Program-made: the position numbers and the translations under genes
Notes under the pieces: model-generated
The model's database searches: none
Told to the model about the DNA's origin: nothing
The model's input: only the letters and a program-made list of their open reading frames with translations
Shown here: piece after piece, positions 4,495-64,000 of the stretch
Numbering within the stretch: the stretch's first letter is position 1
Layout of the letters: every line of letters starts with the position of its first letter
NCBI GenBank assembly: GCA_028287105.1
Contig: JAQBQH010000073.1
Coordinates: 1,963-65,962 of the forward strand
Source: Myxococcales bacterium
GTDB taxonomy: Bacteria; Myxococcota_A; Polyangia; Palsa-1104
Direction of reading: 5' to 3'
Length of the DNA stretch: 64,000 nt

Positions 4495-4509
4495 GCGTAC
4501 GCGCGGCGA

Positions 4510-7339: not shown

Positions 7340-7469
7340 CTTCGAGTGCCGCCGGAAACTGAAGCATGACCAGCGGTTCCGTCGTTCAGGCACACGAAAC
7401 GATCAATTCCTCGTCGACGGTGCGCTCATACGCGTAAGGTTCTCAGTTCGATTCTGAGAGGAGCCACCA
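7340..7469 (+). repeat. Copy 2 of the tRNA-like-ended structured repeat.
   Basis: CTTCGAGTGCCGCCGGAAACTGAAGCATGACCAGCGGTTCCG...ATACGCGTAAGGTTCTCAGTTCGATTCTGAGAGGAGCCACCA. The variable centre is CTCGTCGACGGTGCGCTC. Confidence 0.8.
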
Positions 7470-7569
7470 GTAGTTACGAGGCTCGAAGTTCCAAAGAACA
7501 AGGAATGGAACAAGGAAATGGCGCCACCTCGGACGGTGATACCGCACCGGCTCGGATGGCGCCGCTCCA

Positions 7570-7836: not shown

Positions 7837-8405
7837 ACCCGGCGTATAGCACAAACTGAAGGTGGGACGGACGACGGACCATTGATCTGACAGCCAGCGC
7901 GTAGACGGCGCATATTCGGTCGAAGCACGCTGCGTTGAAGTCCTTGATGTTCAACCTGCGCTTCATCAAATGGGCGTCGTACGTCGGCTTGGTGTTCGGG
8001 CGGTGAATGAGCGGTCAGCCGGTCGAGGAGTCGTGGTCAATACTGCAGGGCGATAAGGCCGGCAGCCCGAGGATGGGAACCACCGCGTCACGGCAGCGCG
8101 TATCCGCGGCGAGAAGACGATCCGAGGGTACGTGCCGATAAAAACGAAGCGCAGCTCGACTCGATGATATCGGACGTGACTGACAGCTGACGATGCTACT
8201 CCGATGTCACCGCGACGAAGAAGCGCGATGAGCGTCGCTTCGAGCTGCGCACCGACGTCAGGCACGACTTCTGCGACTCGAACATCGACACTTGCAAGTC
8301 GCGCAAAGCGGAGCAGAAGCGCCTTGGTGAACATGGACCGCATCGGGCGCGAATCGCCGAGGAAGAGGCGCTCTTGCGGAGCATTGTGAAGCGTCTAGGA
8401 GGATC

Positions 8406-9059
8406 GTGATGGGGCGCGACGCGTCCGAGCCACAGCGCTGTGAGTCGTTGTTCCGTAGCCTGATCGATCACGAGGGTGATGCGGACGCGAACGCCAATGA
8501 TCTGCTGAAGTGTTTCTTTCGCGGGTACCCGCTCGACAACCTCCGCGAGCTTTTGCGAAGCGACGATCCCGAGGTTGCCAAAGCCGGCGTGTGGATCGCT
8601 TCTGAACTGGGAGCGCGCGCGAAGGTGCTGCTCGACGACGTCGTTCCCATTCTGGGCAACCTTCTTCCCTATGCTCGGTTCTTCGCCATCGACGCGATAC
8701 TCGGCGCCAACGGCGACGACGCCGAGGCGGTCGCCAGTGTCATCCGACTCGTTGACGACGCCGACAGCGGCGTTCGCTGGAAGGTCGTCCAGTTCCTGAG
8801 CCGCGCCTCGCGGCAGCAGCTCGAAGCGGCAGCATCGCTCCTCGAAGATCCGCTCGCATCTGCGCTGCGCCGCTTCCTCGACGACAACGAGATCAAGGTG
8901 CTGCTCGAAAGCGAGTCCGGCGCCTTACGAAGGCTGGCGCTTGCCGCTGCGATTCGCGCCGCGCCGACCAACCTCGGCGCGCTGCGCGCGGTGGCGGCGT
9001 CGACGGACGAAGAGGTCAGCGCGTGGGCCGTCGAAGAGCTTGAACAGCGCGGCAATTGA
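8406..9059 (+). CDS. HEAT/ARM-like alpha-helical repeat protein in a lower-GC segment; function unknown.
   Basis: RBS AGGAGG 6 nt upstream of ATG. 217 aa of regular ~35-40-aa helical repeats (DDPEVAKAGVWIASELG..., ADSGVRWKVVQFLSRAS...). GC3 is moderate and clearly lower than in the flanking genes. Confidence 0.5.
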   Translation: MMGRDASEPQRCESLFRSLIDHEGDADANANDLLKCFFRGYPLDNLRELLRSDDPEVAKAGVWIASELGARAKVLLDDVVPILGNLLPYARFFAIDAILGANGDDAEAVASVIRLVDDADSGVRWKVVQFLSRASRQQLEAAASLLEDPLASALRRFLDDNEIKVLLESESGALRRLALAAAIRAAPTNLGALRAVAASTDEEVSAWAVEELEQRGN

Positions 9060-17920: not shown

Positions 17921-18438
17921 GCCGCTCGGCTCCGACGCACGCGATGGCGGAGCAGCCGTTCGCGCCAGACAAAGAGCAGGATGCAGAGCGGCGGCAACGC
18001 CAGCGGCGGCCACTGCGCCAAGAACGGCGGCGGTGCCGACCCGACCGGCAGCTCACACGAGACCGTCGCGCTATCGCTTTGGTGTCGTACCGCGATGGTG
18101 AGCTGCCATGTGCCGGGGGCGGGCAGCTCGAGGAGCGCGGCCTGCAGGAGGCGGTTGCTTGCGGCGGCGTGGGACGGCGCCAGCATGCGCGTCGTTCCAT
18201 CGGGCGCGCGAACGCGCAGCTCTACCGTCGCGTCGAGCAGCACCGCGGCGGCGGCGCCACGCTCCAGCACCAGCACGCTCACTTCGGCGCTGCCGACGCG
18301 TAGCGGCTCGGGCGCGGTGAACAGGGCGATCACGAACGGGCCGGCCGCCCGCGTCAGGCGCAGCGTTCCGCCGTCGGCGAACGCGGGTGCTTCCGACTGC
18401 AAGAGAAGAGCGGCGAGCAGGATCGCCCGCCACCTCAC
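17902..18438 (-). CDS. Small periplasmic protein with C-terminal membrane anchor; possibly FixH / YtkA-like. Follows the CtaG-CcoG gene with a GTGA overlap.
   Basis: GTG start overlapping the upstream TGA stop. Signal peptide VRWRAILLAALLLQSEAPAFA. Beta-rich periplasmic domain (GTWQLTIAVRHQ), then a hydrophobic C-terminal helix and basic tail. The family assignment is a guess from genomic context. Confidence 0.45.
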   Translation of the reverse strand: MRWRAILLAALLLQSEAPAFADGGTLRLTRAAGPFVIALFTAPEPLRVGSAEVSVLVLERGAAAAVLLDATVELRVRAPDGTTRMLAPSHAAASNRLLQAALLELPAPGTWQLTIAVRHQSDSATVSCELPVGSAPPPFLAQWPPLALPPLCILLFVWRERLLRHRVRRSRAAHGSFG

Positions 18439-20645: not shown

Positions 20646-22071
20646 CTCCTCGCAGCGTCTCGAGGAACGACACCAGCGCCGTCACCTCGGGCGGGCTCAA
20701 GTTCTTTCCGTAGGCAGGCATGTTGCCGCCGCCCTGCAGCACCTGGCGGATCAGCTCGTCCACTGTGAGCCGCGACGCCACCTCGTCGAGCGCCGGGCCG
20801 CGCCGCCCCCCCATGCTGTCGAGCGCGTGGCAGTTGCGGCACTGCTTGTTTTGCAGCACCAGCGCGCCCTGTCGCTCGAGCGGCGAGCGCCCCTCGAGGT
20901 AGCGCGCCGGCACCGGGGCGCCGCTCCATGCGTTGGCGACCGGCGACCACGGCGTCGTCTGGCCCAGCCGGGTGAGCGCCGCGAACGAGACGCCGACCAG
21001 GAGCACGGTCAAGACGGCGAGCGGCCGCCGCCGCCAGCTCTTCTCGCCGAAGCCGGAGAGGAGCGGCAAGACGAAGAGGACCCCAATCCCGATCACCGGC
21101 GCCGTCAGGAGCAGCGGCGTCTCCAGGTTGCGCGGCAGCAAGGAGAGCGCGGCGTAGAGCCAGAGGAAGAAGAAGTCGGGCCGCGGCGTCGTTTGGATGA
21201 TCGTCGGATTGGGCGGCCCCGACGGGCCGAACGGTCCGAACAGCGCCGCGCAGCCCAGCACCGCCAGCACCGCCAAACCCGCGGCGACCAGATCGCGCTG
21301 GAAGGCATCGGGCACGAACGGGATGCCGTCCTTCTGCACCAGCTCTTCGTAGTCGTGCAGGTAGCGGTCGCGCGTGACCAGCCGCCCCGGCATGGGCCAC
21401 TCGTTGATGCCGAGCGTGAGCACCATGAGCACGTGCAGCCCGGCGAGCGCGAGCAGCAGACCCGGCACGATGAACACGTGCAGCGAGAAGAAATGCGACA
21501 GCGTGTCGCCGGCGATGATCGGTCCGCCGAGGAGCAGGTGCACCAGGCGCGCCCCGACGAGTGGCACGCGGCCCATGATCGAAGCGCCGATGCCGAGTCC
21601 CCAGTAGGCGTCCTGGTCGAAGCGCAGTACCTGCCCGGTGAACGCCATCCCGAGCGTGAGCAGGAGTAGCAGGACGCCGGTCATCCAGGTCAGCTCGCGC
21701 GGATACTTGAACGCGCCGAAGAGGAAGACCTGCACCATGTGAATGAGGACCAGCGCGACCATGAACGTCGAGCCCCAGCCATGCACCGCGCGCAGGAACC
21801 AGCCGCCGGGCTCGTCGTGGTTGAGCGTCTGCAAGCTGTTCCACGCCTCCGCCGCCGACGGGACGTACGAGAAGGCGAGCACGACGCCGGTGACGATCTG
21901 CAAGAGGAACAGCACGAAGGTGACGCTGCCGAACACGTAGAACCAGCTCGCCGTCGAGCGCGGTACGCGGTGGCGGGCCACCTCACGGATGGTGTCGGCG
22001 AGCTGCAGACGGCGATCGAGCCAGGCACCGAGGGCGCGAATCAGGCGCACGACGACCCCGCAGGGGGACAT
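20554..22071 (-). CDS. Cytochrome b subunit of a bc-type complex (b6 + subunit-IV-like) with a fused C-terminal mono-heme cytochrome c domain.
   Basis: Eight-plus TM helices with conserved His pairs (FMVALVLIHMVQVF; HFFSLHVFIVPG). PEWY-like region. C-terminal CRNCH heme-binding site plus a downstream Met ligand (GGNMPAYG). Confidence 0.8.
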   Translation of the reverse strand: MSPCGVVVRLIRALGAWLDRRLQLADTIREVARHRVPRSTASWFYVFGSVTFVLFLLQIVTGVVLAFSYVPSAAEAWNSLQTLNHDEPGGWFLRAVHGWGSTFMVALVLIHMVQVFLFGAFKYPRELTWMTGVLLLLLTLGMAFTGQVLRFDQDAYWGLGIGASIMGRVPLVGARLVHLLLGGPIIAGDTLSHFFSLHVFIVPGLLLALAGLHVLMVLTLGINEWPMPGRLVTRDRYLHDYEELVQKDGIPFVPDAFQRDLVAAGLAVLAVLGCAALFGPFGPSGPPNPTIIQTTPRPDFFFLWLYAALSLLPRNLETPLLLTAPVIGIGVLFVLPLLSGFGEKSWRRRPLAVLTVLLVGVSFAALTRLGQTTPWSPVANAWSGAPVPARYLEGRSPLERQGALVLQNKQCRNCHALDSMGGRRGPALDEVASRLTVDELIRQVLQGGGNMPAYGKNLSPPEVTALVSFLETLRGDGLSPARNPAEAALPPSAASPGRNAASPGR

Positions 22072-22670
22072 TCGCGACGCGCGGACTCCGACAGCGTCGG
22101 CAACCGGCCGGCGAGGATGACGAGCGCGCCGCGTTCAATCTTGTGGCGGTACTGCCACAGGCCGCGCGGCGGCGGACCGCCTGCGAGCGAGCCGTCCTCG
22201 TAGTAGACCCCACCATGGCAGGGGCACAAGAACAGGGCCGACTGGGCGAACCAGCGCACCGGACAGCCGAGGTGCGCGCAGTTGATCGCGAACACCTGGA
22301 ACTGATTGCCGCGGATGTGCCGCACCCAGCAGGGGATGTCGGCGGTCTCGCCGTCCCATGGGTGCCGGAACGGGTTGGTGAACGTCGCCAACCTCGTCTG
22401 TCCCTCGGGGAACTGCTCGAGCGGCCCGAGCGTGACCCACGCCTGGTCGGAGCGCATCGCTTGCTTGCGCGCGGGCGCGAGGAGGTAGCGCACCACCGGC
22501 GTGAGAAGAAGCGCCGCCGCCGCGCCGTTGATGAGAAGGCCCAGCCGGAGCAGCATGCCACGACGAGATGGGGGCCTTTCGTTCTCAGGTGAACGATCCA
22601 TGGCTCTTCTCCTCAGCGGCTGCGGGCATGGGGCCTCCCCGGAAATTCCTGGCGGTGCGAGATCAGCCAC
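22041..22670 (-). CDS. Rieske [2Fe-2S] iron-sulfur protein.
   Basis: CAHLGCPV ... CPCHGGVY boxes. N-terminal RR-containing TM/Tat-like anchor (SRRGMLLRLGLLINGAAAALLL). Confidence 0.8.
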   Translation of the reverse strand: MADLAPPGISGEAPCPQPLRRRAMDRSPENERPPSRRGMLLRLGLLINGAAAALLLTPVVRYLLAPARKQAMRSDQAWVTLGPLEQFPEGQTRLATFTNPFRHPWDGETADIPCWVRHIRGNQFQVFAINCAHLGCPVRWFAQSALFLCPCHGGVYYEDGSLAGGPPPRGLWQYRHKIERGALVILAGRLPTLSESARRECPPAGSSCA

Positions 22671-23338
22671 GCCACCACGTCGGCGATCTGTTGCGACGCG
22701 AGCGGACGGCCCGGCACGTCGCTGCGCCAGTCGGGTTGGCCGATCTCTGGCCGGCCGACGATCACCAGTGTGCGCAACGATTGAGCGCTCACGAGCGCGA
22801 GATAGGAGCCGTCGACGATGGAGCGCGACTTCGGCCCATCGCTGCCGTCGGAGCCGTGGCAGCTCGCGCAGAAGGTTGCGAACACGCCGGCGCCGCGTCG
22901 CGCCTCGCCGTCCGGACCGACGTAGGGCGGCGGCGTCTCCGAGAGCGTCTCGGCCCGCGCCCAGTGCGTGCGAATCCCGCGGGCGATGACGTCGACCTGA
23001 CGGTCGGTCAGCCCGCCGCCGGCGCTCTGGGCGAACGCCGGCATGCTGGTCCCTGCCACGCCGGTGGCGATGATCCGACGCAGGGTCTGGTCGTCGGCGA
23101 TCGCGAGATACACGACGTTGTCGAGGCCGAGCGCCGCGCCGCCGCGACCGTTCTCGCCGTGGCAGCCGGCGCAGCTCGACGCATAGAGCGCCGCGAAGTC
23201 CTCGACCTTCGACGGCTGTCCCTCGAGACTGACGCCCTTCGGCTGCCCCGGCAGCGTGCAGCCGCCGCCGCCCACAATAACGACGACGACGACGAAGGCG
23301 AGAGCCCCGACGACGACGATGGCCCGGGCGCGCGTCAT
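22613..23338 (-). CDS. Membrane-anchored diheme cytochrome c (QcrC / cytochrome cc-like).
   Basis: Real start is MTRARAIVVVGALAFVVVVVIVGGGGC (TM anchor). Two CxxCH sites (CAGCHG, CASCHG). The ATG overlaps the upstream stop as ATGA. The longer 522-aa ORF is read-through. Confidence 0.8.
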   Translation of the reverse strand: MTRARAIVVVGALAFVVVVVIVGGGGCTLPGQPKGVSLEGQPSKVEDFAALYASSCAGCHGENGRGGAALGLDNVVYLAIADDQTLRRIIATGVAGTSMPAFAQSAGGGLTDRQVDVIARGIRTHWARAETLSETPPPYVGPDGEARRGAGVFATFCASCHGSDGSDGPKSRSIVDGSYLALVSAQSLRTLVIVGRPEIGQPDWRSDVPGRPLASQQIADVVAWLISHRQEFPGRPHARSR

Positions 23339-24165
23339 GGCCGCCGGCCTGTTTCGAGGCCGATGCGCTCGGCGAACGGCTCGCTCTGGCGCGTGTGGAT
23401 GCGCAGGCTGCGCGACACCACCACGCCGGCCGCGAGGCCGAAGCCGATCTGCGAGACGAGGAACCAGCCCCAGTCGATTCGCCGGGCCAACACCGGATTG
23501 ATCATCCCGATGGTCGGATACAAGAGCGCCGACCACGCCAGCGGCGCCACCAGCCCACCGGCCAGCACTGGGCGGCGCGAGAACATCGGCAGCAGCATGC
23601 CGTAGAGCGTGCCGACGAGCAGCGACGTCACGCCGTGGATGAGCGTACCGAACAAGAGCGCCCAGCCGTCGAAGGCGCTCAGCTCCTCGGTGGTGGCCCT
23701 GAGCTCGGGCCTGTAAAACCCCGCGACCAGAATGTTGATCGGATACCAGACGCCATGGTGCGAGATGACGCCGTAGATGGCGGCGGTGAGCGCCATGACC
23801 ACGCCGCCGGCGATTCCGCCCTTGATGCCCGCGGAGACGGGAAAGATCTCGACCGGCAGCCGTGCGCGGTGCTCTCGCTCCGCGATGCGTGGGTGCGTCG
23901 TCGGAGGACGCGGCTCGATGCGCGGCTGCCCCTCGGGCTCGATCGGAATCCGGACGCTGCGCTCGACGGGCAGCACCACGCGGAACCAGCCGACTGCGCC
24001 GGCAACGAGCAGTACCGCGCCGAGCAGGCTCACCTCGCCCGCGGTCACCAGCCCGGCGCCCAGGAGCGTGGCGCCGAAGGCCATGGTGAGCGGCCAGGCC
24101 GTCGGCGCCGGCACCTCGATCTCTTCGGGGCCGCCCGTCGCTTCCGTGCGCTCCGTCGCCTCCAT
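23335..24165 (-). CDS. Hypothetical polytopic membrane protein (276 aa, ~6 TM) embedded in the oxidase/bc operon.
   Basis: Real start is MEATERTEATGG... The remainder of the 463-aa ORF is spurious. Hydrophobic helices (GATLLGAGLVTAGEVSLLGAVLLVAGAVGWF, GGIAGGVVMALTAAIYGVI, WALLFGTLIHGVTSLLVGTLYGMLLPMF and others). Start and stop are coupled to their neighbours by ATGA overlaps. No family recognised. Confidence 0.55.
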   Translation of the reverse strand: MEATERTEATGGPEEIEVPAPTAWPLTMAFGATLLGAGLVTAGEVSLLGAVLLVAGAVGWFRVVLPVERSVRIPIEPEGQPRIEPRPPTTHPRIAEREHRARLPVEIFPVSAGIKGGIAGGVVMALTAAIYGVISHHGVWYPINILVAGFYRPELRATTEELSAFDGWALLFGTLIHGVTSLLVGTLYGMLLPMFSRRPVLAGGLVAPLAWSALLYPTIGMINPVLARRIDWGWFLVSQIGFGLAAGVVVSRSLRIHTRQSEPFAERIGLETGRRP

Positions 24166-24170
24166 CGCCG

Positions 24171-24761
24171 TCACCGTCCAATCACGTAGACGACGCTGAA
24201 CACGACGATCCAGACGCAGTCGACGAAGTGCCAGTAGAGCGCGAGCACCTCGACGTGCTCGGTGTAGCGACGGTGCAGCTTGCCGAAGAGCGTGAGCATC
24301 AACACCGTCGTCAGAAGGACGAGCCCGACGGTCACGTGGAACGCGTGCAGCCCGACGAGCGAGTAGTAGGTCGTGCCGAACAGGTTGGTCGCCGGCGTGA
24401 GCCGCTCGTGGTGGACGAGCCGGGCCCACTCGCGGCCGGTGCCGGCGAGGAAGAGGGCACCCAGCGCCGCCGTGGCGCCCCACGCGACCGCGAACGTAGC
24501 CAGGCGTCCCCGGCGCAGCGCCCGCACGGCCCACGCGATGGTCCCGCTCGACGACAGGAGGCAGATGGTGTTCGCCACCGGCAGCGAGAGCGCCTGCTCG
24601 GGCGTCGGCCCGTAGGGGCTCTTTCCCAGATAGAACAGATACGCGACGACGAAGATGACGAACATCGCGCTCTCGGCGACGATGAAGCACACCATTCCGA
24701 CGCGATTGCGCGAGGGGAGCTCCCACCCGGCCTCGCCGGCGACGACGGCGGCTTGGTTCAT
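24171..24761 (-). CDS. ctaE: Cytochrome c oxidase subunit III.
   Basis: 196 aa from MNQAAVVAGEAGWELPSRNRVGMVCFIVAESAMFVIFVVAYLFYLG. Conserved subunit-III helices (ALYWHFVDCVWIVVFSVVYVIG). The ATG overlaps the ctaD stop (ATGA). The rest of the 729-aa ORF is a shadow. Confidence 0.8.
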   Translation of the reverse strand: MNQAAVVAGEAGWELPSRNRVGMVCFIVAESAMFVIFVVAYLFYLGKSPYGPTPEQALSLPVANTICLLSSSGTIAWAVRALRRGRLATFAVAWGATAALGALFLAGTGREWARLVHHERLTPATNLFGTTYYSLVGLHAFHVTVGLVLLTTVLMLTLFGKLHRRYTEHVEVLALYWHFVDCVWIVVFSVVYVIGR

Positions 24762-26455
24762 TCGTACACCCAGTCGGGATCTTCGGGATGCTTCAGATCC
24801 CACAACGGGCGCCGGCTGCGCACCGTCGGCACGACCGCGAAGTTGTATTCCGGCGGCGGCGACGACGTCGACCACTCGAGCGTCCACGCGTCCCACGGAT
24901 CGGGGCCCGCGAGCTTGCCCTTGTGCAGGCTGCGCACGAGGTTGACGAGGAAGCATGCGACGCCCGCGGCCTGGAAGAAGGCGCCGATGGTGATGACGAG
25001 GTTGAGGGTCTCCCAGCCCCGTCCCGGCTCGTAGGTGTAGATGCGGCGGGGCATGCCGAGCAGCCCCGGGATGTGCATCACGGTGAAGGTGAGATGGAAC
25101 CCGACCAGGAACAGCCAGAAATGCAGCTTGCCCAACTTCTCGTCGAGCATCCGACCCGTCACCTTGGGGAACCAGTAGTAGAAGGCGGCGAAGACGGTAA
25201 AGAGCAGCGACCCCACGAGCATGAAGTGGAAGTGCGCGACCACGAATGTGGAGTCGGTGAGCTGCCAGTTGAAGGGCACGGCCGCGAGCATGATCCCCGT
25301 CAGCCCGGCGATCAGGAACTGGCCGATGAACGCGATGCAAAACAGCATCGGTGTGGCCAGGCGGATCTTGCCGCCCCACATCGTGCCGATCCAGTTGAAG
25401 ATCTTGATCCCCGTCGGGATGCCGACCAGCAGCGTCGCGACCATGAAGAAGGTGTTCGCCGTCATCGACATCCCGACGGCAAACATGTGGTGCGCCCACA
25501 CGCTGAGGGAGACGAAGCCGATGGCGATCACCGCGCCGACGAGGACCGGGTAGCCGAAGATCGCCTTGCGCGAGAAGACCGGGATGATCTCGGAGGCGAA
25601 CGCCCAGCCGGGAATCATGAGGATGTAGACCTCGGGGTGGCCGAAGATCCAGAAGAAGTGCTGCCACAAGACGGCCGAGCCGCCGGCCTGGGTATCGAAG
25701 AAGTGGGCGCCGAGGAAACGATCGGCGAGCAGCATCAGCTGCGCCGCCGCCAGCGGCGGGACCCCAACCAGCACCAGCACCGAGTCGACGACGTAGAACC
25801 AACACAGAAGGGGCAGTTTGCCGAGCGTCATCCCAGGGCAGCGACGGCTGAGGACGGTGGTGATGATGTTGACGGCGGTCCCGATGGAGCCGACGCCGGA
25901 GAGGAAGATGGAGAGGATCCAGTAGTCCGTCGAGTGCCCGCGCGAAAACGCGCGCGAGGTCAGGGGCGCGTAGGCGAACCAGCCCACGTCGGGCGCACTG
26001 CCGGCGCCGTAGAGCCCCTCGGCGCCGAGAAAGCTGAAGTAGAGGAGGAGCCCGGCGAATGCGCTCATCCAGAAGCTGAACGCGTTGAGCCGGGGGAAGG
26101 CCATGTCGCGCGCACCGATCATGAGCGGCACGAGGTAGTTGGCGAAGCCGAAGATCAGCGGCATCCCGACGAAGAACACCATCGTCGTGCCGTGCAGCGT
26201 GAACAGTCGATTGAACGTCTGCGGCGCGAGCAGCGTATTGTGCGGCGCCACGAGCTGAAGCCGGATCAAGAGCGCCTCGCTGCCGCCGATGAGGAGGAAC
26301 AGGAGCGCGTAGAGCACGTACATCACGCCGAGGCGCTTGTGGTCGACGGTAACGATCCATTCGTGAAGCCGCTGCCAGAAGCGCGCCTCGACCTCGCGCG
26401 TCGTGACCGCGGCTTCGCCCGTCATGGCCGTCGTTCGTGGCGCTGGAACGCCCAT
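24758..26455 (-). CDS. ctaD: Cytochrome c oxidase subunit I (heme-copper oxidase catalytic subunit).
   Basis: 565 aa, 12+ TM helices. Ligand-bearing motifs (WFFGHPEVYILMIPGWA; HHMFAVGMS). Confidence 0.9.
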   Translation of the reverse strand: MGVPAPRTTAMTGEAAVTTREVEARFWQRLHEWIVTVDHKRLGVMYVLYALLFLLIGGSEALLIRLQLVAPHNTLLAPQTFNRLFTLHGTTMVFFVGMPLIFGFANYLVPLMIGARDMAFPRLNAFSFWMSAFAGLLLYFSFLGAEGLYGAGSAPDVGWFAYAPLTSRAFSRGHSTDYWILSIFLSGVGSIGTAVNIITTVLSRRCPGMTLGKLPLLCWFYVVDSVLVLVGVPPLAAAQLMLLADRFLGAHFFDTQAGGSAVLWQHFFWIFGHPEVYILMIPGWAFASEIIPVFSRKAIFGYPVLVGAVIAIGFVSLSVWAHHMFAVGMSMTANTFFMVATLLVGIPTGIKIFNWIGTMWGGKIRLATPMLFCIAFIGQFLIAGLTGIMLAAVPFNWQLTDSTFVVAHFHFMLVGSLLFTVFAAFYYWFPKVTGRMLDEKLGKLHFWLFLVGFHLTFTVMHIPGLLGMPRRIYTYEPGRGWETLNLVITIGAFFQAAGVACFLVNLVRSLHKGKLAGPDPWDAWTLEWSTSSPPPEYNFAVVPTVRSRRPLWDLKHPEDPDWVYE

Positions 26456-56140: not shown

Positions 56141-57721
56141 CTACGGCAGCGGACTCGTGCTCGTGCCGTTCGTCGGCGACCAGCCGCCGGCGCTGTACTG
56201 CCACCACAGCTTGCTCGCATTCTCCTGCCAGATCGCGCCGCCGACGTAGGCGAGCGCGATGACGCCGGCGCTGTAGCCCGCGGGCTCGCCGTTGATCGTC
56301 ACGACGCCGCCGCTCGTGACCGCCCAGCCGTTACCGGCGCCATCGCACAGCGTGCTGCCGCCGGGGGTCACGACCGTGGCGCTCGGCGACGCGCTGCAGT
56401 CGGCGCCGGGGAGGGGACGCGTGCTCGTGCCGGCGGTCGGGGTCCAGCTGCCGCCGGACCAGCGCCACCACATGCGGTCCGCATTCTGTTGCCAGAGGGC
56501 GCCGTCGACGGACGCGATCTCGATGACGTTGGCGCTGTAGCCGGCGGCGGCGCCGTTGAGCGTGACGGTGCCGCCGCTGGTGAGCGCCCAGGCGTTGCCG
56601 CTGCCGTCGCACAAGGTCGGCCCGGTCGTGGTCACGACGCTGTGGTTCGGCGATGCGGCGCAGCCGGGAGATGGCTGGACCGGCCCCGAGCCAGCGGCGA
56701 TGAACGCAGCCACCGTCGTTCCGTACGGCGACGTCACGTTGCCGTTGCCGTCGGTGAGGTTGTCTTGCTGCGCGTACGACCAGAAGTGCCACGCGGTCGA
56801 GCCGAAGCCGCTCTGCTCGACACCGTAGACCACCTGCATGCCGTTGGCGTCCAGATCGCTTCCGTTGGTCGAGTTGCCGTATTCGCCGATGAGGATCGGC
56901 ACCGTGCCGTCGGCGCTCGTAATCTGCTGCGTGCTGGCCGCGTGCGCGGCGATGTCATGGTTGACGGTATTCTGGTCGACCGCGAAATTGGTCAACCAGC
57001 CGTAGTAATGCATGTCCCAAACCATATTCACCATTCCCGAATATAACGAGCGCGTATATCCGGCGCCGCAGCTATTCGGGTCGGACCCGCAATTCATTTC
57101 GACCATGACGATATTCTGATTTCCGGTATTTCGAATCGCGTCGTAGGTCTGCTTCTGCCAGGTCGACAGCGCCGCCGCCGACGGATTTTCGGACGGCTCG
57201 TTGTCGGTGCCGAACCAGACATACGGATTGTTCGCGTATGCGCGCGCGATCGCCGAATACCAGTTCAGCTCGTCGGTGAGCAGCTGGCCCGTGTATACCG
57301 TACCGGCGCCGCCGCCCGCATTGCCGCCATTGTTCGTATGGTCCTCGAGCTCCACGACGATGCCGCGCGAGGTCAGCGCGTCGACGAAGCCCTGGTACGC
57401 CGACGGGTCCTGATACGAGAAGCACGCCAGGCGCACCATATTGAGCTTCGGAAACAGCGTCAGAAGCGGCGTGCAGTCGGCGCCGGAGCACACCGACGAC
57501 ATCTGCCCATCGTACAGGTTGAGGCCGCGCGCCTGAAACGAGTTGCCGTCGGGGCCGATGATCTGGCCATTGCGCACGGAGAAGCTGCCACCGATCTGCG
57601 TCGGCGCGACGGTGATGGGCTTGTTGTTCTCGACGCGGCCGCCGCAGCCGCACAAGGCCGCGGCCATGGTGGTCGCCAAGATTAGATGGTCGAGCTTCAC
57701 GGGTCCTCCACGGATCAGCAT
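56141..57721 (-). CDS. Glycoside hydrolase family 5 lipoprotein with two C-terminal ~85-aa tandem repeat domains (possible carbohydrate-binding modules).
   Basis: Lipobox ALCGC. VWFGTDNEPSE acid/base box and ILIGEYG nucleophile box. The repeats C-x-ASP-x-x-VVTT-GPTLCDGSGN-W-A-L-TSGG-V-T-L-NG...WW.W occur twice. Part of the gene is AT-richer. Confidence 0.75.
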   Translation of the reverse strand: MLIRGGPVKLDHLILATTMAAALCGCGGRVENNKPITVAPTQIGGSFSVRNGQIIGPDGNSFQARGLNLYDGQMSSVCSGADCTPLLTLFPKLNMVRLACFSYQDPSAYQGFVDALTSRGIVVELEDHTNNGGNAGGGAGTVYTGQLLTDELNWYSAIARAYANNPYVWFGTDNEPSENPSAAALSTWQKQTYDAIRNTGNQNIVMVEMNCGSDPNSCGAGYTRSLYSGMVNMVWDMHYYGWLTNFAVDQNTVNHDIAAHAASTQQITSADGTVPILIGEYGNSTNGSDLDANGMQVVYGVEQSGFGSTAWHFWSYAQQDNLTDGNGNVTSPYGTTVAAFIAAGSGPVQPSPGCAASPNHSVVTTTGPTLCDGSGNAWALTSGGTVTLNGAAAGYSANVIEIASVDGALWQQNADRMWWRWSGGSWTPTAGTSTRPLPGADCSASPSATVVTPGGSTLCDGAGNGWAVTSGGVVTINGEPAGYSAGVIALAYVGGAIWQENASKLWWQYSAGGWSPTNGTSTSPLP

Positions 57722-57849
57722 GCGGGGGGCATGTTGCAACCGGAGGACCAGCGCGCCGCCCGCGAGGTCCGCGGAGGGCGCGGCCGCTGGACGGCGGCAG
57801 CGTGTTCTCGAGAACACAGATTGGGGACTGGCCGCCCCGCGGCGTTACA

Positions 57850-58257
57850 TCAGTTTGACGTACGGCATCCGTCGCCATCACAGCGGCAGACATGGTTGAC
57901 GCAAGACGCCGTGATAGACGGAGGCGCGCAGGGCCGGCAATCCTGACTGGCGGTTGGACACTCGAGCGCCCACTCCGCGCTCAACCCGTCCAGTTGGAGC
58001 TTCGCCGAACCGCGCACAGCGACGCCGCACGCACCTGCGAGCCCGCACCCGGTGTGGGGATACACGATGCAGTCCGCGTTGACCTCGCATCCCGCCCACG
58101 TCGCGGTCAATTGCGAGATCTGCACGGCGATGGTCGTGCACGCAGGATTGTCGGATCTTCCGCTCGCGCAAGCCATCAGTCCGCACAAGAGGATGCTGGC
58201 GAGCCCCGCGATCCCAAGGTGACTCCAGCGTGCCCAGCGTCGTTGGCCGTTGCTCAT
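57850..58257 (-). CDS. Small Cys-rich lipoprotein.
   Basis: Lipobox LLCGLMAC. About 16 Cys in ~110 mature residues. Confidence 0.5.
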   Translation of the reverse strand: MSNGQRRWARWSHLGIAGLASILLCGLMACASGRSDNPACTTIAVQISQLTATWAGCEVNADCIVYPHTGCGLAGACGVAVRGSAKLQLDGLSAEWALECPTASQDCRPCAPPSITASCVNHVCRCDGDGCRTSN

Positions 58258-58485
58258 CGAGCACCTCGTAGAGCTCCTCTGTCGCATCGGCCCGCGACCA
58301 GAACATAAGGCGTGGCAGGCGCCGTCACTAGTCCGCAGCGATTGGGGACCGATGCGCTAACGACCAGCCGGCGCGCACTTCCGGGCGCGCCACCCGGTGA
58401 TCGACTTCGCGTTTCAAACTAATATGGAGCGATGCTCGCCGATTGCGCTTGCCCGAACCGTGCGTTCTCGACGTTACTTCGGGTG

Positions 58486-59199: not shown

Positions 59200-59423
59200 C
59201 TCGCCGTCGCGCCTGCCCGTCGCGCGCGAGGCCTTCGGCTGCTCCGCGGTCGCCCACTGCTCGCTGCAGGACCGTCCTTGCGGCGCGGCGATCCCTCCGA
59301 TAACCTTCACGACCATGGTACGCCCCGGCTTCAGCTGACGCGCGCGCTCGAATCGCGTGTCGATTTCCCACTCTTCCGTCTGTTAGAGCTCCGCGCCCCG
59401 CGCGGGGCGAAAGGAGCTTTCCC

Positions 59424-60599
59424 ATGCCGCATCCGTACGCTCTCGATGACAAATCGGCAGCACTGACCACCAGGACCGCCACGCTCGCCGACGACGTCGT
59501 CGCGCGCCACTCGGCGGAGGTCGATCGCAACGCTCGCTTCCCCGTCGAGAGCGTCGCCGCGCTCGGCTCCGCCGGTCTCCTCGGCCTCTGTGTGCCGTCC
59601 GATCTCGGCGGCCTCGGTCAGGGTCCGCGGGCGTTCTGCGCCGTCGCCGAGGAGCTCGGACGCGCGTGCGCTTCGACGGCGATGGTGTTCGTGATGCACA
59701 CCAGCGCAACCCAGGCGATCATCTCGTCGCAGTCTCTCGGCGATCGCGACGCGCTGCTCGCTGAGATCGCCAAGGGCGCGCACCTGACTACGCTCGCGCT
59801 GTCGGAAAAGGGATCCCGCTCGCAGTTCTGGGCGCCCGTGTCGAAGCTGACCGCCAGGGGCGAAGGCTTCGTCACCAATGCTGCCAAGTCATGGGTGACG
59901 TCAGCCAACCATGCCGACTCCTATGTGACCAGCGCGCAGATGCCCGACGCGAAGTCGCCGCTGGAGTCCACGATCTATCTGGCGCACACCGCGGCCAATG
60001 AGATTCGCCCGCAGCCCGGCTTCGACGGGCTCGGCCTGCGCGGCAACGACTCGGCACCGGTCAGCATCGAGAACCTGACCGTCGCCCGGCGCGATCTCGT
60101 GAGCGAGCTTGGCAAGGGCGCCGACACCATGCTGCAGGTCATCCTGCCCTGGTTCGCCATCGGCACCGCCGCGATGGCGCATGGATTGTGCCGCGCCGCG
60201 GTTGGCGCGACCGCCCATCATCTGTCGTCGACGGGCTTCGAGCACACCGGCACGTCGCTGCGCGATCTGCCGCAGCTGCGGGCGCGGCTGGCGCAGATGA
60301 GCGTGCGCACCGAAGCCTCGCGCGCGCTCCTCGGACGGGCGCTCGCCGAGATCGAAGCGGGCACGCCGGAGGCACCACTGTTCGTGCTCTCGACCCGCAA
60401 GGCGGCGCTGGAAGCGGCCCTGGAGGTGACCGATCTGGCGCTCAAGGCGTGCGGCGGGGCGGCATTCTCGCGTCAGATGCCGAGCGCGCCCATCGAGCGG
60501 CTGTTTCGCGACGCGCGCGCCGGCTGGGTGATGGCGCCCACTGTCGATCATCTGGATGACTTCATCGGCAAGGCCCTCACCGGGCTGCCGCTCTTCTAA
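59424..60599 (+). CDS. Acyl-CoA dehydrogenase-family flavoprotein.
   Basis: RBS AAAGGAG. Three-domain ACAD pattern with a C-terminal helical domain (RLFRDARAGWVMAPTVDHLDDFIGKAL). Confidence 0.75.
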   Translation: MPHPYALDDKSAALTTRTATLADDVVARHSAEVDRNARFPVESVAALGSAGLLGLCVPSDLGGLGQGPRAFCAVAEELGRACASTAMVFVMHTSATQAIISSQSLGDRDALLAEIAKGAHLTTLALSEKGSRSQFWAPVSKLTARGEGFVTNAAKSWVTSANHADSYVTSAQMPDAKSPLESTIYLAHTAANEIRPQPGFDGLGLRGNDSAPVSIENLTVARRDLVSELGKGADTMLQVILPWFAIGTAAMAHGLCRAAVGATAHHLSSTGFEHTGTSLRDLPQLRARLAQMSVRTEASRALLGRALAEIEAGTPEAPLFVLSTRKAALEAALEVTDLALKACGGAAFSRQMPSAPIERLFRDARAGWVMAPTVDHLDDFIGKALTGLPLF

Positions 60600-60610
60600 A
60601 GGAGGCGATC

Positions 60611-61417
60611 ATGTCCGAGTCGATCTTGCTGGGCGCCGTCGCCTACGATCCGAAAGTCGTCACCATCTGGGAAGGTATCCGCGAATATTTTCGTGCCGAA
60701 GGCGTGGACCTCGACTTCGCGCTCTTCTCCAACTACGAGCGGCAGGTCGCCACGCTGCTGGCCGGCCACATCGACATCGCGTGGAACACGCCGCTCGGCC
60801 ACGTGCGCGTGCAGCGCCGTACCGAAGGACGCGCGCGCTCGCTCGGCATGCGCGACACCGATCGCGATTTCCACGCGAAGATCGTCGTCCGCCGCGACGC
60901 CGGCATTCGCACGCTCGCCGATCTGCCGGGCAAGATCTTGGCGGTCGGCAGTCGCGACTCGACGCAGGCACGCATCCTGCCGCTCCACTTCTTGCGCAAA
61001 GAAGGCGTGGCGCTCGACCGCGTTCAGCTCCTGCCGTTCGACACGGATCTCGGCAAACATGGCGACACCGGGGCGAGCGAGCTCGACGTGCTGCGCGCGC
61101 TCGCGGACGGGCGCGCACATGCTGGCGCCGTCGGCGATCTCGTCTGGATCAACGAGCAGTCTGCCGGTCGTATCGACCCGCAGCTCGTCGATGTGCTGTA
61201 TACGACGCCCGGCTTCGATCACTGCATGTTCGACGCGTTGCCCTCGCTGTCGGAAGCGAAGGTCGAGGCGTTCCAGCGCGCGCTGTTCGCGATGCGGTGG
61301 GAGGAGCCGGCGCACCGACGGTTGCTGGAGCTCGAAGGACTGCGCGAATGGATGCCGCCGCGCGAAGAGGGTTACGACAGCCTGCGGCGCGCGCTCGAAG
61401 AGACCGCCGAGTGGTGA
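60611..61417 (+). CDS. PhnD/SsuA-type periplasmic-binding-protein-fold protein lacking any signal peptide (predicted cytoplasmic).
   Basis: RBS AGGAGG. PhnD-family blocks (GHIDIAWNTPLGHV; DLPGKILAVGSRDSTQARILPLHFL; ADGRAHAGAVGD). The N-terminus begins directly with the mature-domain sequence. Confidence 0.65.
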   Translation: MSESILLGAVAYDPKVVTIWEGIREYFRAEGVDLDFALFSNYERQVATLLAGHIDIAWNTPLGHVRVQRRTEGRARSLGMRDTDRDFHAKIVVRRDAGIRTLADLPGKILAVGSRDSTQARILPLHFLRKEGVALDRVQLLPFDTDLGKHGDTGASELDVLRALADGRAHAGAVGDLVWINEQSAGRIDPQLVDVLYTTPGFDHCMFDALPSLSEAKVEAFQRALFAMRWEEPAHRRLLELEGLREWMPPREEGYDSLRRALEETAEW

Positions 61418-62598
61418 GCCGCGCGGGCGCGGTCGCGATCAACGGCGGCGACCTGGCGCTCGGCGGCGGTCTGTTGGCGCTCCTACGGCCGGCATTGGAC
61501 CTACTCGCGCCCGGCGGTGTCGTCGCACTCCGCTCGTCGAGCGCGGGCGTGCGCCACGATCTACCGTCCTGGTGTCGCTTCGAGCGTCACACCTATCTCG
61601 AGTGCGAGCCGCAGTCGGACGGCAGCGACCTGCACCTCGTCGGCCGCGGACGGTTCGCCGTTGCGTACGCGACGGACGCCGCGACCGGCGAGGCCGATCC
61701 GCACACGGGCTTCGCACCTCTCGGCGCGCGAGTCGAGCGTGGTGGGCCTCGCTATCCCTTCACGATCAATCGGCGAGATTCGGCGCCGCCACCACAAACG
61801 ACGCGCCAGCTCTACGACCAGGCGACCCTGGCGCAGTGGGACGCGGCGCGTGACATTCCCTGGGATCGCGTGCAACCGCTCTCCCCCATCGTCGAGCGCG
61901 CCGTCGGCCAGGTGATGACGTTCCTGGCGGAGAACGAGCTGTCTGCGCTCTACGTGCCCTCCAAGTTCGTGGCGCGCTTGCATCCCGCGTACGCGGAGAC
62001 GGCGATGTTCCTGGCCACGCAAATGATGGACGAGGCACGCCACATCGATGTGTTCTTGCGGCGCGCGCGGGCCGGCGGCGGTGCGCTCGGCGTTTCTAGC
62101 GTCACGACGTCGCGTTCGCTCTTGTCCCTACTGGAGCTCGAAGACTTCACGGAGGCCGCGTTTCTATTGTCGGTCCTCGGTGAAGGCACGTTCCTCGATC
62201 TGCTGCGCTACATCGAACGCCATGCGCCCGACGAGGTAACGGCGGAAATCGCTCGGCGCACGCGCGCGGACGAGTCGCGTCATGTTCACTTCGGCGTGAT
62301 GCATGTACGTCAGGCGCTCGGCTGCGACGCCGCGCTGGCGCGACGTCTCGAAGAGACAGTCCGCCAACGCGCCGCGACGCTTCATGGTGTCTCGGGCGTC
62401 CCCGCTCCGATCCAGGATGCGTTGACCATCCTTGCCGCAGGCAGTGACGAGCCTGGAGCTGTGGCACGGGGTCATGAAGCATTCCGCGAGCTGTTGTCGG
62501 ACATGCATGCGGGCCGGCTGAAGCGGCTCGTGCACGCCGGGTTCACACCGGCGCAGGCGCAGTTGCTGTCGGAGCTGCACACCCCGAACTTCATGTAA
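61414..62598 (+). CDS. Fusion of a degenerate TusA-like domain (no CPxP Cys) and a ferritin-like diiron-carboxylate domain (AurF / R2lox / Coq7-like).
   Basis: GTG start overlapping the upstream TGA (GTGA). The N-terminus LLAPGGVVALRSSSAGVRHDLPSWCRFERHTYLECE parallels the TusA core LKPGEVLEVLSTDPGSKRDIPAWCRQTGHELL. The C-terminus carries two E...ExxH boxes (MDEARHIDVF, ADESRHVHFG). Confidence 0.55.
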   Translation: MSRAGAVAINGGDLALGGGLLALLRPALDLLAPGGVVALRSSSAGVRHDLPSWCRFERHTYLECEPQSDGSDLHLVGRGRFAVAYATDAATGEADPHTGFAPLGARVERGGPRYPFTINRRDSAPPPQTTRQLYDQATLAQWDAARDIPWDRVQPLSPIVERAVGQVMTFLAENELSALYVPSKFVARLHPAYAETAMFLATQMMDEARHIDVFLRRARAGGGALGVSSVTTSRSLLSLLELEDFTEAAFLLSVLGEGTFLDLLRYIERHAPDEVTAEIARRTRADESRHVHFGVMHVRQALGCDAALARRLEETVRQRAATLHGVSGVPAPIQDALTILAAGSDEPGAVARGHEAFRELLSDMHAGRLKRLVHAGFTPAQAQLLSELHTPNFM

Positions 62599-62828: not shown

Positions 62829-64000
62829 ATGAAGACGCTGATGCGAACTGTCCGGTGTCATCGACCAACGTTGGTCGCCCTCGTGAAAACGGGGACCGCG
62901 CTCTTGATCCTTGGCCCACTCGGGTGCGGCAACAGCAACACCACGCGGCAGGGTCCCGAGATCCCGCAGCCGACCATGTGCCAGCAGGTGAACATCGGAT
63001 CGATCTTGCCGGGCGGGGCGAACATCGATCCCGACGTGGTGCAAATCAACGCCTCGATAAGTGCCACCGAGGCCGCCGCCCTCGCGCAAGCGACGACCTC
63101 CGCCTCGCTCGACTTCTATCACCAGATCACGCTGCTCGGAAAGATCGAGATCTATGACGTGAATCTCTCGGTGAACAAGAACGTCGCCTGCGCCACTTGC
63201 CATGTTCCTGACGCCGGTTTCACGGGTGGCAGTTCTTTTATCAACCAGACCATCGTTGCGCAGCCCGGCTCGGTTGCCATCACCAATGCGACCGGAATGG
63301 GGCCGAACGCACGCGTTTCCGCGCGGAAACCGCAGACCTATAGCTATGCACCGTTTGCGCCCATCCTTCACTACAATGCGACCCAGCAGGACTTCTACGG
63401 CGGCAACTTCTGGGATATGCGGGCGACGGGAATCCGGCTGGACAACGGAGCCGCCGAGCAGGCCCAGGGACCTCCCGTCAATCCCCTGGAGATGGGACTT
63501 CCTGATACTACGTGTGCGGTTTATCGAGTGTCACAGGGTCCATATAGAGCCTTTTTCGAACAGATCTGGGGTACCCAGTCCTTCGCCATCAACTGGCCTG
63601 CGAATATCGCGCAACTGTGCTCGACGCCGTCTTCGGCAAGCGTGCCCGCCGGTACGACCCTACCGCCACAGAACGGTACGCTTCCGGTTCCGTTGAGCGA
63701 TCTCGACCGGGGACGGTCCAATGACACCTATGACAACATGGTGCTGGCCATCGCTTCGTATGAAGCGGGGCCCGAGGTCAGTCCGTTCTCGTCGAAGTTC
63801 GACTTCTTCCTGGCCGGCGCCGCCCAACTGACCGCACAGGAGCAGAACGGCTGGGCGCTCTTTCACGGCAAGGCACATTGCAATGAATGCCACCTCGATG
63901 GAACCGAGGCCAATGCGCCCGGGAAGGTCACGCCCGCAGACGTCGCGCCGCTGTTCAGCGACTTCACGTCGAACAACATCGGCGTTCCAGCAAATCCCTG
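62829..64000 (+). CDS. Di-heme cytochrome c peroxidase-family lipoprotein (CCP/MauG family); 3' end beyond the window.
   Basis: Lipobox LGCG. CATCHVPDAGFTGG (heme 1). CNECH (heme 2). The frame is open to the window end. AT-richer than its neighbours. Confidence 0.7.
   Translation, partial: MKTLMRTVRCHRPTLVALVKTGTALLILGPLGCGNSNTTRQGPEIPQPTMCQQVNIGSILPGGANIDPDVVQINASISATEAAALAQATTSASLDFYHQITLLGKIEIYDVNLSVNKNVACATCHVPDAGFTGGSSFINQTIVAQPGSVAITNATGMGPNARVSARKPQTYSYAPFAPILHYNATQQDFYGGNFWDMRATGIRLDNGAAEQAQGPPVNPLEMGLPDTTCAVYRVSQGPYRAFFEQIWGTQSFAINWPANIAQLCSTPSSASVPAGTTLPPQNGTLPVPLSDLDRGRSNDTYDNMVLAIASYEAGPEVSPFSSKFDFFLAGAAQLTAQEQNGWALFHGKAHCNECHLDGTEANAPGKVTPADVAPLFSDFTSNNIGVPANP

Follow-up and report, generated by a model that had tools for sequence, protein, structure and literature searches.

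A conserved ACAD, PhnD-fold and TusA-like/diiron gene trio in a Myxococcales contig, a candidate O2-dependent counterpart of the mycobacterial Rv1679-Rv1680-Rv1681 cassette

What do a flavoprotein of the acyl-CoA dehydrogenase (ACAD) fold, a phosphonate-binding-protein fold that lacks a signal peptide, and a fusion of a TusA-like domain with a ferritin-like diiron domain do together? The question is raised by a three-gene operon on the + strand, at 59424-62598 of a 64-kb stretch (64,000 nucleotides, approximately 68% GC; hereafter the window) of contig JAQBQH010000073.1 from a soil bacterium of the Myxococcales (assembly GCA_028287105.1). Our answer, which we hold at slightly better than even odds (a probability of roughly 0.55), is that the trio encodes a cytoplasmic three-protein redox system and is the O2-dependent, diiron version of the Rv1679-Rv1680-Rv1681 cassette. 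The second product, a signal-less PhnD/SsuA-fold protein, is referred to below as the SBP, and the third, the TusA-like/diiron fusion, as FUS. The operon comprises the following elements.

59411..59416, + strand: Shine-Dalgarno sequence AAGGAG, 7 nucleotides 5' of the ACAD ATG
59424..60599, + strand: gene for the ACAD-fold flavoprotein (391 amino acids, ATG start)
60599..60605, + strand: Shine-Dalgarno sequence AAGGAGG, overlapping the ACAD TAA and 5 nucleotides 5' of the SBP ATG
60611..61417, + strand: gene for the SBP (268 amino acids)
61411..61417, + strand: GTGGTGA, in which the FUS start (GTG at 61411 or 61414) overlaps the SBP TGA (translational coupling)
61414 (or 61411)..62598, + strand: gene for FUS (394 or 395 amino acids)

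A first-pass annotation of this DNA had described strong ribosome binding sites and a GTGA overlap joining the three genes; both are present in the sequence. The GTG at 61411 is the start used in the NCBI model P0001 (395 amino acids; a 100% identical hypothetical protein from a Myxococcales metagenome-assembled genome [MAG]). That the genes form one coupled unit, as was also proposed then, is borne out by the stop/start overlap and by adjacency across phyla. We scanned one genome per species in 185,579 species and found 129 relatives of FUS, the best 80 of which were used for the locus analyses; all 80 are from MAGs, of Acidobacteriota, Myxococcota, Planctomycetota, Bdellovibrionota, Armatimonadota, Chloroflexia, Actinomycetota, Sericytochromatia and other lineages. 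The trio is adjacent in approximately 60 of the 80 loci, those of soil bacteria of at least eight phyla (Gemmataceae among the lineages), and essentially every locus with sufficient upstream DNA has the genes co-oriented in the order ACAD-SBP-FUS (tblastn with the window proteins; identities 43-83%), with the order FUS-ACAD-SBP in three further loci. All-versus-all clustering of the neighboring open reading frames (ORFs) gave no fourth conserved gene, the next cluster reaching at most 8 of the 80 loci once antisense shadow ORFs were set aside, and the annotated neighborhoods in other assemblies are heterogeneous. Neighborhood conservation, by which the first-pass annotation proposed to judge its trio, thus extends across phyla; given this conservation the adjacency exceeds chance, and the trio is a self-contained cassette. 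One Thermoanaerobaculia MAG (DASPMO01) has two cassette copies, L011 and L034; the gap between ACAD and FUS genes in L034 is approximately 500 nucleotides, too short for a full SBP gene, and this copy may be decayed.

The link to mycobacteria comes from the first two genes. Four NCBIfam families (NF049986, NF049984, NF049985 and NF049973) describe the Rv1678-Rv1681 cassette of Mycobacterium tuberculosis and other Mycobacteriales. The best NCBIfam match of the window ACAD is NF049984, the Rv1679 family acyl-CoA dehydrogenase (394.2 bits, E 6e-118, below the cutoff of 600), and that of the SBP is NF049985, the Rv1680 family SBP-like protein (316.3 bits, E 2e-94, below the cutoff of 400); by these scores the two are relatives that lie outside the curated Rv1679 and Rv1680 families. 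The SBP has no signal peptide and directly follows an Rv1679-type ACAD gene, as an Rv1680-type protein does; the window has neither the radical S-adenosylmethionine (radical-SAM) third gene nor the upstream membrane protein of the full cassette. By tblastn, an Rv1681-like gene is absent both from the window and from all 80 FUS loci; an Rv1678-like gene is absent from the window, with only a weak match approximately 6 kb away in two other loci (L007 and L013). Neither the Rv1679/Rv1680 homology nor the radical-SAM alternative in the third slot was part of the first-pass annotation.

Plasmids show how the two arrangements relate. By tblastn, FUS has no match in plasmids, and SBP homologues (42-46% identity) occur on plasmids of Mycolicibacterium vanbaalenii, Rhodococcus opacus and Miltoncostaea oceani. 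The M. vanbaalenii order is Rv1678-family membrane protein, ACAD (631 bits), SBP-like protein (495), Rv1681-family radical-SAM protein (536), CcdA and a thiol-disulfide oxidoreductase, with the ACAD and SBP-like scores above the NF049984 and NF049985 cutoffs. The R. opacus locus has the membrane protein, ACAD and SBP-like genes and stops before the third gene. In Miltoncostaea the ACAD/SBP pair is accompanied by a DUF2515 protein and a radical-SAM/SPASM protein, with a separate Rv1681-like radical-SAM gene nearby, and this locus (L083) is a third arrangement around the same ACAD/SBP core. In neighbor-joining trees the Mycobacteriales ACAD and SBP stand beside their counterparts in L075, which is from an Actinomycetota MAG and has FUS as its third gene, and the motif VMAPT, a C-terminal G-x-P-L-F and a His-Cys pair in the SBP are common to the FUS and radical-SAM cassettes. 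Because both cassette types hold the ACAD/SBP pair and differ in the third gene, we regard the pair as the constant core and the third gene as exchangeable.

Other genes of these plasmid loci were recorded in passing. The Miltoncostaea locus (744-8844) encodes a short Rv1681-like radical-SAM protein without the TusA-like N-terminus, a GT2 glycosyltransferase, and a fusion of TIGR04282-like (arsenosugar-type glycosyltransferase) and NudE-like domains. The flanks of the M. vanbaalenii locus (L081; 336-2306 and 9488-11856) encode an AhpD-like peroxidase-related protein, a deiodinase-like thioredoxin-fold protein, a mycoredoxin, a TrsS/Tes-like radical-SAM protein (335 bits) and a DVU_1556/ArsM-type methyltransferase; several of these flanking families are selenoproteins in other lineages.

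The third proteins of the two cassettes, different in their catalytic domains, appear to begin alike. By BLASTP, residues 1 to approximately 60 of the M. vanbaalenii Rv1681-family protein align with the TusA-like domain of FUS at 30% identity, the WC motif included. A profile of 115 Rv1681-family N-termini was compared by hhalign with several others:

more diverse FUS N-terminal profile: 92.5%, E 4.9e-7
small set of genuine TusA proteins: 85%, E 6e-6
low-diversity profile of the window's own clade: 13%, E 0.002
reversed, column-shuffled and unrelated controls: P at least 0.07

In an AlphaFold2 model of the Rv1681-family protein (mean pLDDT 79.5), the N-terminal domain (approximately 90) has helix 2-12, strand 18-23, helix 26-39, strand 42-48 and strand 54-59, which match helix 16-29, strand 36-41, helix 44-56, strand 60-66 and strand 72-77 of the FUS model. 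Relative to TusA, this order lacks the initial strand and the loop with the Cys. Foldseek with the whole Rv1681 model returned radical-SAM cores only (the N-terminal domain was not queried alone). We have moderate confidence that both types of third protein would consist of a degenerate TusA-like domain joined to a catalytic domain; given that neither type has the catalytic Cys, the most likely role of the TusA-like domain is docking.

In the searchable literature, Rv1679/Rv1680, Rv1681/MoeX and fadE16 appear only in omics lists, biomarker reviews or unrelated papers. One structure-based re-annotation labels Rv1680 a 'putative phosphonate transporter component' (PMC8562490), and the present data argue against that label. 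We regard the trio as a variant of a kind of locus, that of Rv1678-Rv1681, known only from NCBIfam names and scattered omics mentions.

What the flavoprotein can do is limited by a residue that it lacks. Its N, M and C domains all score above the Pfam cutoffs (PF02771, 65.9 bits; PF02770, 35.0; PF00441, 62.2), and its closest solved relatives in the PDB are short-chain acyl-CoA dehydrogenases (E 1e-34), with nitrososynthase at only 2e-12. M370-A-P-T373 (60531-60542) replaces the Y-E-G-T of ACADs, and with it the catalytic Glu is gone; VMAPT is invariant in 51 ACAD homologues, members of the radical-SAM cassette included. The HMMER alignments to solved ACADs end just before the region of this motif. 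Isovaleryl-CoA and long-chain dehydrogenases place the base at an alternative position, equivalent to T255 of medium-chain acyl-CoA dehydrogenase (MCAD), and this position is W243 in the window ACAD (we take the sites to correspond to MCAD E376/T255 and isovaleryl-CoA dehydrogenase E254). A Glu base is present at neither position, and the product of gene 1 is therefore unlikely to be a classical alpha,beta-dehydrogenase, to judge from its sequence, in spite of its ACAD fold. Its distant NCBIfam matches are 3-sulfinopropanoyl-CoA desulfinase, SfnB and DszC. The suggestion in the first-pass annotation that this flavoprotein might be an N-oxygenase is helped by the missing dehydrogenase base and weakened by a sequence that is nearer to true acyl-CoA dehydrogenases than to N-oxygenases.

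The second protein is a member of Pfam Phosphonate-bd (PF12974; 120.3 bits, cutoff 27, E 1e-34), and it also matches SsuA and a putative selenate-binding family (E 6e-26) in NCBIfam. A signal peptide is lacking: between the preceding in-frame stop and 60611 there is no other start codon, and in the alignment the first residue falls close to where mature periplasmic PhnD1 begins, that of Synechococcus (PDB 7s6g, E 7e-18), the closest solved relative; a genuine PhnD in locus L088, in contrast, opens with a lipoprotein signal. There are no PhnC or PhnE homologues in the 64-kb window, and no ABC partners are conserved in the related loci. The earlier description of a cytoplasmic PhnD-like protein without a signal peptide accordingly stands, as no upstream in-frame start is possible and the window has no ABC genes, and on these grounds we rejected a reading of the gene as part of a transporter. 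The residues with which PhnD1 binds phosphate are Y44, S124-T125-S126, H156, D203 and Y204 (PMC10284923), and they correspond to SBP residues as follows.

PhnD1 Y44: SBP Y42 (kept)
PhnD1 S124-T125-S126: SBP S117-T118-Q119
PhnD1 H156: SBP S156
PhnD1 D203-Y204 (capping pair): SBP H204-C205 (61220-61225)

Only Y42 is fully retained, and the STS loop is retained in part. In 63 SBP homologues, including three from actinobacterial plasmids, H204, C205, H150, D152, D116, S117, S156 and E157 are at least 97% conserved, and Y42 is also among the conserved pocket residues. A pocket remodelled in this way, with its His-Cys pair, points to a role in catalysis, in covalent carriage or in metal binding and away from plain transport. 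Cytoplasmic enzymes with a binding-protein fold have precedents in THI5 and MqnA.

The third protein was modelled with AlphaFold2 on 41 homologues (mean pLDDT 83.9). Its parts are listed below.

61429..61650, + strand: TusA-like domain, residues 6-79 (strand-helix-strand-helix-strand-strand, pLDDT 80-94)
61693..61761, + strand: inter-domain segment, residues 94-116, A....GFAPxGAxVExGxPxxPF, conserved (pLDDT 43-54)
61765..62595, + strand: ferritin-like four-helix-bundle diiron domain, residues 118-394
61936-61938, 62032-62034 and 62041-62043: diiron ligands E175, E207 and H210
62182-62184, 62272-62274 and 62281-62283: diiron ligands E257, E287 and H290

The N-terminal domain resembles TusA in profile comparison (hhalign against a TusA set, 98.7% probability, E 3e-16), at 17.4 bits against the Pfam TusA cutoff of 28.6 (PF01206). 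Leu16 (61459-61461) stands where TusA has its catalytic Cys (Cys19 in Escherichia coli), and of the 120 closest parsable FUS homologues 115 have a hydrophobic residue there and none a Cys; the domain therefore cannot carry persulfide sulfur in the manner of TusA. Cys54 (61573-61575), in a conserved WCR motif, is the second, non-catalytic Cys of TusA and is retained, so that the domain had been called Cys-less correctly with respect to its active site and incorrectly with respect to Cys54. The wider linker (approximately residues 83-119) is conserved yet poorly modelled, and the segment within it may contact a partner or form a lid.

The six ligands of the diiron domain (E175, E207-x-x-H210, E257 and E287-x-x-H290) are invariant in 79 of 79 FUS homologues. 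Foldseek against the PDB returned R2lox, VlmB (6d9f, 8wvr) and the aldehyde-deformylating oxygenases (ADO), all with probability 1.0 and with TM-scores, normalized to target length, of at most 0.64 for R2lox/VlmB and 0.80 for ADO; the family profile (36 diverse representatives) has as its PDB matches the VlmB homologue 6d9f/8wvr (E 9e-11) and R2lox (3e-7). FUS falls below every curated family cutoff that we applied (AurF PF11583, 17.0 versus 29.6; DUF455 PF04305, 17.8 versus 34.3; R2lox, 33.7 versus 194), and one stand-alone relative passes that of AurF. The domain appears complete and is predicted, from ligands and model together, to activate O2. The TusA-like/two-ExxH ferritin-like fusion of the first-pass annotation is thus upheld, with alignment to VlmB, R2lox and ADO and only weak similarity to AurF. 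A library clustered at 50% identity holds 989 clusters of the family at E up to 0.001 and 108 at E up to 1e-30, among them stand-alone ferritin-like relatives of approximately 300-360 amino acids. Pfam and NCBIfam searches gave no curated model for the TusA-like/diiron fusion, and a literature search on TusA with ferritin-like and DsrE or DUF455 found nothing on the architecture. The trio contains neither a PhnD transporter protein nor a functional TusA and, by the family thresholds, no member of AurF, R2lox or DUF455.

A pointer to the substrate comes from paralogues of FUS. In four loci (L069, L070, L071 and L078), FUS paralogues of 43-46% identity have a DsrE-family gene upstream instead of ACAD and SBP, and in L070 and L078 a TusA gene as well; a second protein search seeded from L070, followed by context look-ups, found the order TusA-DsrE-FUS in three more contigs. 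All seven DsrE-associated FUS proteins have DLDCG(S/T)G and hence the catalytic Cys of TusA, and the ACAD/SBP-associated ones have L, I, V, F, A or P at the Cys position, with L067 (Sericytochromatia) as the sole exception. The result is a clean evolutionary correlation: FUS proteins that have DsrE/TusA as partners retain the TusA Cys, and those that have ACAD/SBP as partners have lost it. TusA-DsrE is the only functional context found for the FUS family; it would tie the diiron domain to carrier-bound sulfur, possibly selenium, and by extension the trio of the window, in which there is no second TusA or DsrE gene in 64 kb. Thiol-redox genes also adjoin the actinobacterial cassette. A SelB gene (TIGR00475, 365 bits) lies directly upstream of TusA-DsrE-FUS in L093 (4075-6021, - strand), and L071, of the same Chloroflexia lineage, has a homologous GTPase (1213-3153, - strand) that is SelB-like by its N-terminal sequence; this adjacency may hint at selenium or may be coincidence. 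A supposed association of CysNC with three loci was withdrawn, the ORF cluster having mixed a true CysNC (L063) with SelB (L071, L093).

A separate observation concerns L033, a Planctomycetota locus that has the trio: genes for a TusA-containing protein, a DsrE-like protein and a TusA(Cys+)::OsmC-like fusion lie at 563-2288 (- strand), approximately 4 kb upstream of the trio, followed by a MetE-like gene. This cluster parallels TusA-DsrE-FUS with OsmC in place of the diiron domain.

The proposed redox system would work as follows. The three proteins would form a complex. In it, the pocket of the PhnD-fold protein would be occupied by a small anionic substrate or by an intermediate bound to Cys, and the catalytic domain would be anchored on the ACAD/SBP core pair by the degenerate TusA-like domain. 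The diiron centre would activate O2 for hydrogen abstraction from the substrate or for its oxygenation, a 5'-deoxyadenosyl radical would initiate the oxidation in the mycobacterial version, and the flavoprotein would perform or relay the accompanying redox step. As substrate we tentatively favor a sulfur compound (persulfide, sulfinate or thiosulfonate) or possibly a selenium analogue, because the Cys-retaining FUS paralogues sit in TusA-DsrE relay cassettes, because the ACAD has distant similarity to desulfinase, SfnB and DszC and the SBP to SsuA and the putative selenate binder, and because thiol-redox genes adjoin the actinobacterial cassette; with this substrate we are below even odds. Stated in full, the proposal is a new three-component enzyme, in which a His-Cys binding-fold subunit presents the S/Se species and TusA-derived docking brings in a diiron domain that catalyzes the same step as Rv1681; so specific a version is doubtful.

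Several observations count against these proposals. The window ACAD and SBP fall short of the NCBIfam cutoffs, and flavin binding by the ACAD, which is probably kept, is read from motifs only. The link to sulfur stems from a paralogous cassette, and the TusA-like domain of the trio has lost the Cys. An Armatimonadota genome (GCA_046292385.1; L091 and L096) holds both a TusA-DsrE-FUS(Cys+) and an ACAD-SBP-FUS(Cys-less) cassette; the two are therefore paralogous systems that are not interchangeable and presumably have different roles. The closest solved diiron relative, VlmB, oxidizes an N-N bond and not sulfur, and the closest solved relative of the SBP, PhnD1, binds phosphate, phosphite and methylphosphonate (PMC10284923). 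A radical-SAM enzyme and a diiron oxygenase need not catalyze the same step, and a split between aerobes and anaerobes, which we considered for the diiron and radical-SAM cassettes, was rejected, since Mycobacteriales are aerobes.

Four other explanations were weighed. The one that survives best, although we consider it unlikely, is protein maturation, in which the third protein uses its TusA-like domain for docking and alters a residue in one of the two core proteins (for example, Cys205 or His204 of the SBP) to create a cofactor or active site. Formylglycine is made both by the radical-SAM enzyme anSME and by the O2-dependent FGE, which offers a parallel for two kinds of third protein, and R2lox-type proteins perform chemistry on protein residues. 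An invariant His-Cys pair at positions of ligand contact in PhnD1 and the strict 1:1:1 co-occurrence of the three proteins are as maturation would have it. So are the nearest relatives of Rv1681, which are peptide- and protein-modifying radical-SAM enzymes (sactisynthases, PqqE, MftC, SuiB, SkfB); however, that likeness is confined to the generic core, and there is no recognizable modification motif.

Next, and a shade less probable, is the idea nearest to that of the first-pass annotation, a small biosynthetic pathway of N- or C-oxygenation in which the ACAD acts as a VlmH- or nitrososynthase-like N-hydroxylase and the diiron protein acts, like AurF or VlmB, on an amine or hydrazine bound by the SBP. 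Valanimycin biosynthesis couples an ACAD-fold N-hydroxylase with VlmB; a VlmB azoxy synthase homologue is the best PDB match of the FUS family profile (E 9e-11), and the weak AurF matches in Pfam, the stand-alone relative above the AurF cutoff and the missing dehydrogenase base of the ACAD can all be read in the same way. However, there are no conserved amino-acid-activating, decarboxylase, flavin-reductase or other biosynthetic neighbors, the ACAD matches acyl-CoA dehydrogenases (1e-34) far better than nitrososynthase (2e-12), the TusA/DsrE associations are left unaccounted for, and identities of 60-75% across phyla suggest a conserved, shared function rather than a lineage-specific natural product. 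Of the earlier claim of oxygenation or biosynthesis and not transport, we therefore retain the cytoplasmic location, the rejection of transport and the O2-activating nature of the nearest diiron relatives. An N-/C-oxygenation pathway is not established: the conserved biosynthetic neighbors are missing, the ACAD is nearer to dehydrogenases, and the context of the FUS family is sulfur relay.

Lower again in our ranking stands cytoplasmic processing of phosphonates or other organo-oxyanions (P, As, Se), in which the SBP binds the oxyanion group and the diiron or radical-SAM enzyme cleaves or hydroxylates the adjacent C-X bond. C-P cleavage offers a parallel in PhnZ (diiron) and PhnJ (radical-SAM-type). 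The SBP is a Phosphonate-bd protein by Pfam, its best PDB match binds phosphate, phosphite and methylphosphonate, and it matches the putative selenate-binding family (E 6e-26); the PhnD1 ligand residues, however, are kept only in part (STS to STQ, H156 to S, D203-Y204 to H-C). The neighborhoods supply several links, each of them limited to a single lineage: resemblances of actinobacterial cassette neighbors to arsenosugar-pathway glycosyltransferases, ArsM-like methyltransferases, TrsS and families that are often selenoproteins; SelB beside TusA-DsrE-FUS in L093, with the SelB-like GTPase gene in L071; and, in one lineage, a PhnCDE transporter with a class-V aminotransferase at 3-7 kb on the upstream side. 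The surroundings of the trio show no conservation of phn, pho or ars genes.

That the genes are unrelated neighbors (a fatty-acid ACAD, a transporter binding protein with a mis-called start and a hypothetical protein), as their generic Pfam names would allow, is scarcely credible in view of the adjacency across phyla, the stop/start overlap, the Glu missing from every ACAD member, and the absence of an upstream in-frame start, a signal peptide and ABC genes.

The kinship with the mycobacterial cassette has consequences beyond this contig. An ACAD/SBP-like pair is conserved from M. tuberculosis to uncultured Acidobacteriota, Myxococcota and Planctomycetota, and the PhnD binding-protein fold gains a cytoplasmic, probably catalytic member. 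The use of diiron/O2 and of radical SAM on the same TusA-like domain would narrow the reaction to one that both can start, typically hydrogen-atom abstraction. The diiron version should be easier than a radical-SAM enzyme to reconstitute in air, and, if the diiron domain does catalyze the same step as Rv1681, one experiment on a soil cassette would assign a function to the Rv1678-Rv1681 locus. The annotation of Rv1680 is affected as well, as a cytoplasmic SBP-like protein versus the phosphonate-transporter label, and the full three-component proposal, if true, would define a new diiron class acting on carrier-bound sulfur.

Upstream of the trio in the window are genes for a START-domain protein, a glycoside hydrolase family 5 (GH5) glycosidase, a cupin and an aldehyde dehydrogenase, all unrelated. 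The GH5 protein (56141-57817, - strand) has a C-terminal tandem duplication of a segment of approximately 75 residues, with the motif ...LCDGxGNxWAxTSGGxVTxNGxxAGYSAxVIExAxVxGAxWQxNAxxxWWxxSxGxWxPTxGTSTxPLP occurring twice, and its gene adjoins one for a small Cys-rich secreted protein (57850-58287, - strand). Downstream, at 62829-64000 (+ strand) and running beyond the window end, is an equally unrelated gene for a di-haem cytochrome c peroxidase of the lipoprotein type (CCP_MauG, E 6e-20), with CATCH and CNECH as its haem motifs; it is not conserved beside the trio in other loci. At 18001-26000 the + strand has a strongly positive AT skew of 0.13 to 0.30 (2-kb windows), as compared with about -0.10 to +0.10 elsewhere in the window. 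A tRNA scan found none. A promoter scan of 59.0-63.2 kb found no promoter-like sites and terminator-like sites at the chance level, and in a 68% GC genome such scans say little. An Rfam scan of 58-64 kb gave nothing besides a sub-threshold match to the L31-Firmicutes ribosomal leader at 59389-59416 (+ strand), over the ACAD ribosome binding site (24.3 bits versus a gathering score of 33.3, E 0.08), which is almost certainly due to chance.

How, then, does the trio compare with known systems? The non-dehydrogenase ACAD-fold enzymes (desulfinase, SfnB, DszC-type monooxygenases and nitrososynthase) have, as does the window ACAD, the fold without the canonical Glu base; the window ACAD is, however, far under their family cutoffs (118 versus 600, 75 versus 431 and 45 versus 850 bits) and, unlike that group, is nearest by sequence to short-chain acyl-CoA dehydrogenases. 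The binding proteins PhnD, PtxB and SsuA share with the SBP the type II binding-protein fold, the Pfam family, Y42 and part of the anion-binding loop (G113-S114...S117), whereas the SBP differs in the absent signal peptide, the absent ABC partner, the His-Cys pocket and the position of its gene, which is always between two redox-enzyme genes.

With the sulfur-relay proteins of the TusA/DsrE kind, the N-terminal domain of FUS has the TusA fold and the WC(R) motif in common; it differs at the catalytic Cys, for which the window protein has Leu and almost every other trio-associated FUS a hydrophobic residue. VlmB and R2lox share the four-helix bundle and the E / ExxH / E / ExxH ligands with FUS, at only approximately 18-22% identity; they are without the N-terminal TusA-like domain and the conserved linker, and the context of VlmB (VlmO, VlmH, VlmA) is absent around FUS. 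The Rv1678-Rv1681 cassette differs in its radical-SAM catalytic domain, where the trio has a diiron domain, in its adjoining Rv1678-family membrane protein, which the trio does not have, and in a TusA-like domain that is without the first strand and Cys loop in Rv1681 and of full length in FUS. It shares with the trio the ACAD-SBP order, the loss of the Glu (VMAPT), the C-terminal PLF and the His-Cys of the pocket, and in both cassettes the third gene adjoins the SBP gene directly or overlaps with it and encodes an N-terminal TusA-like domain.

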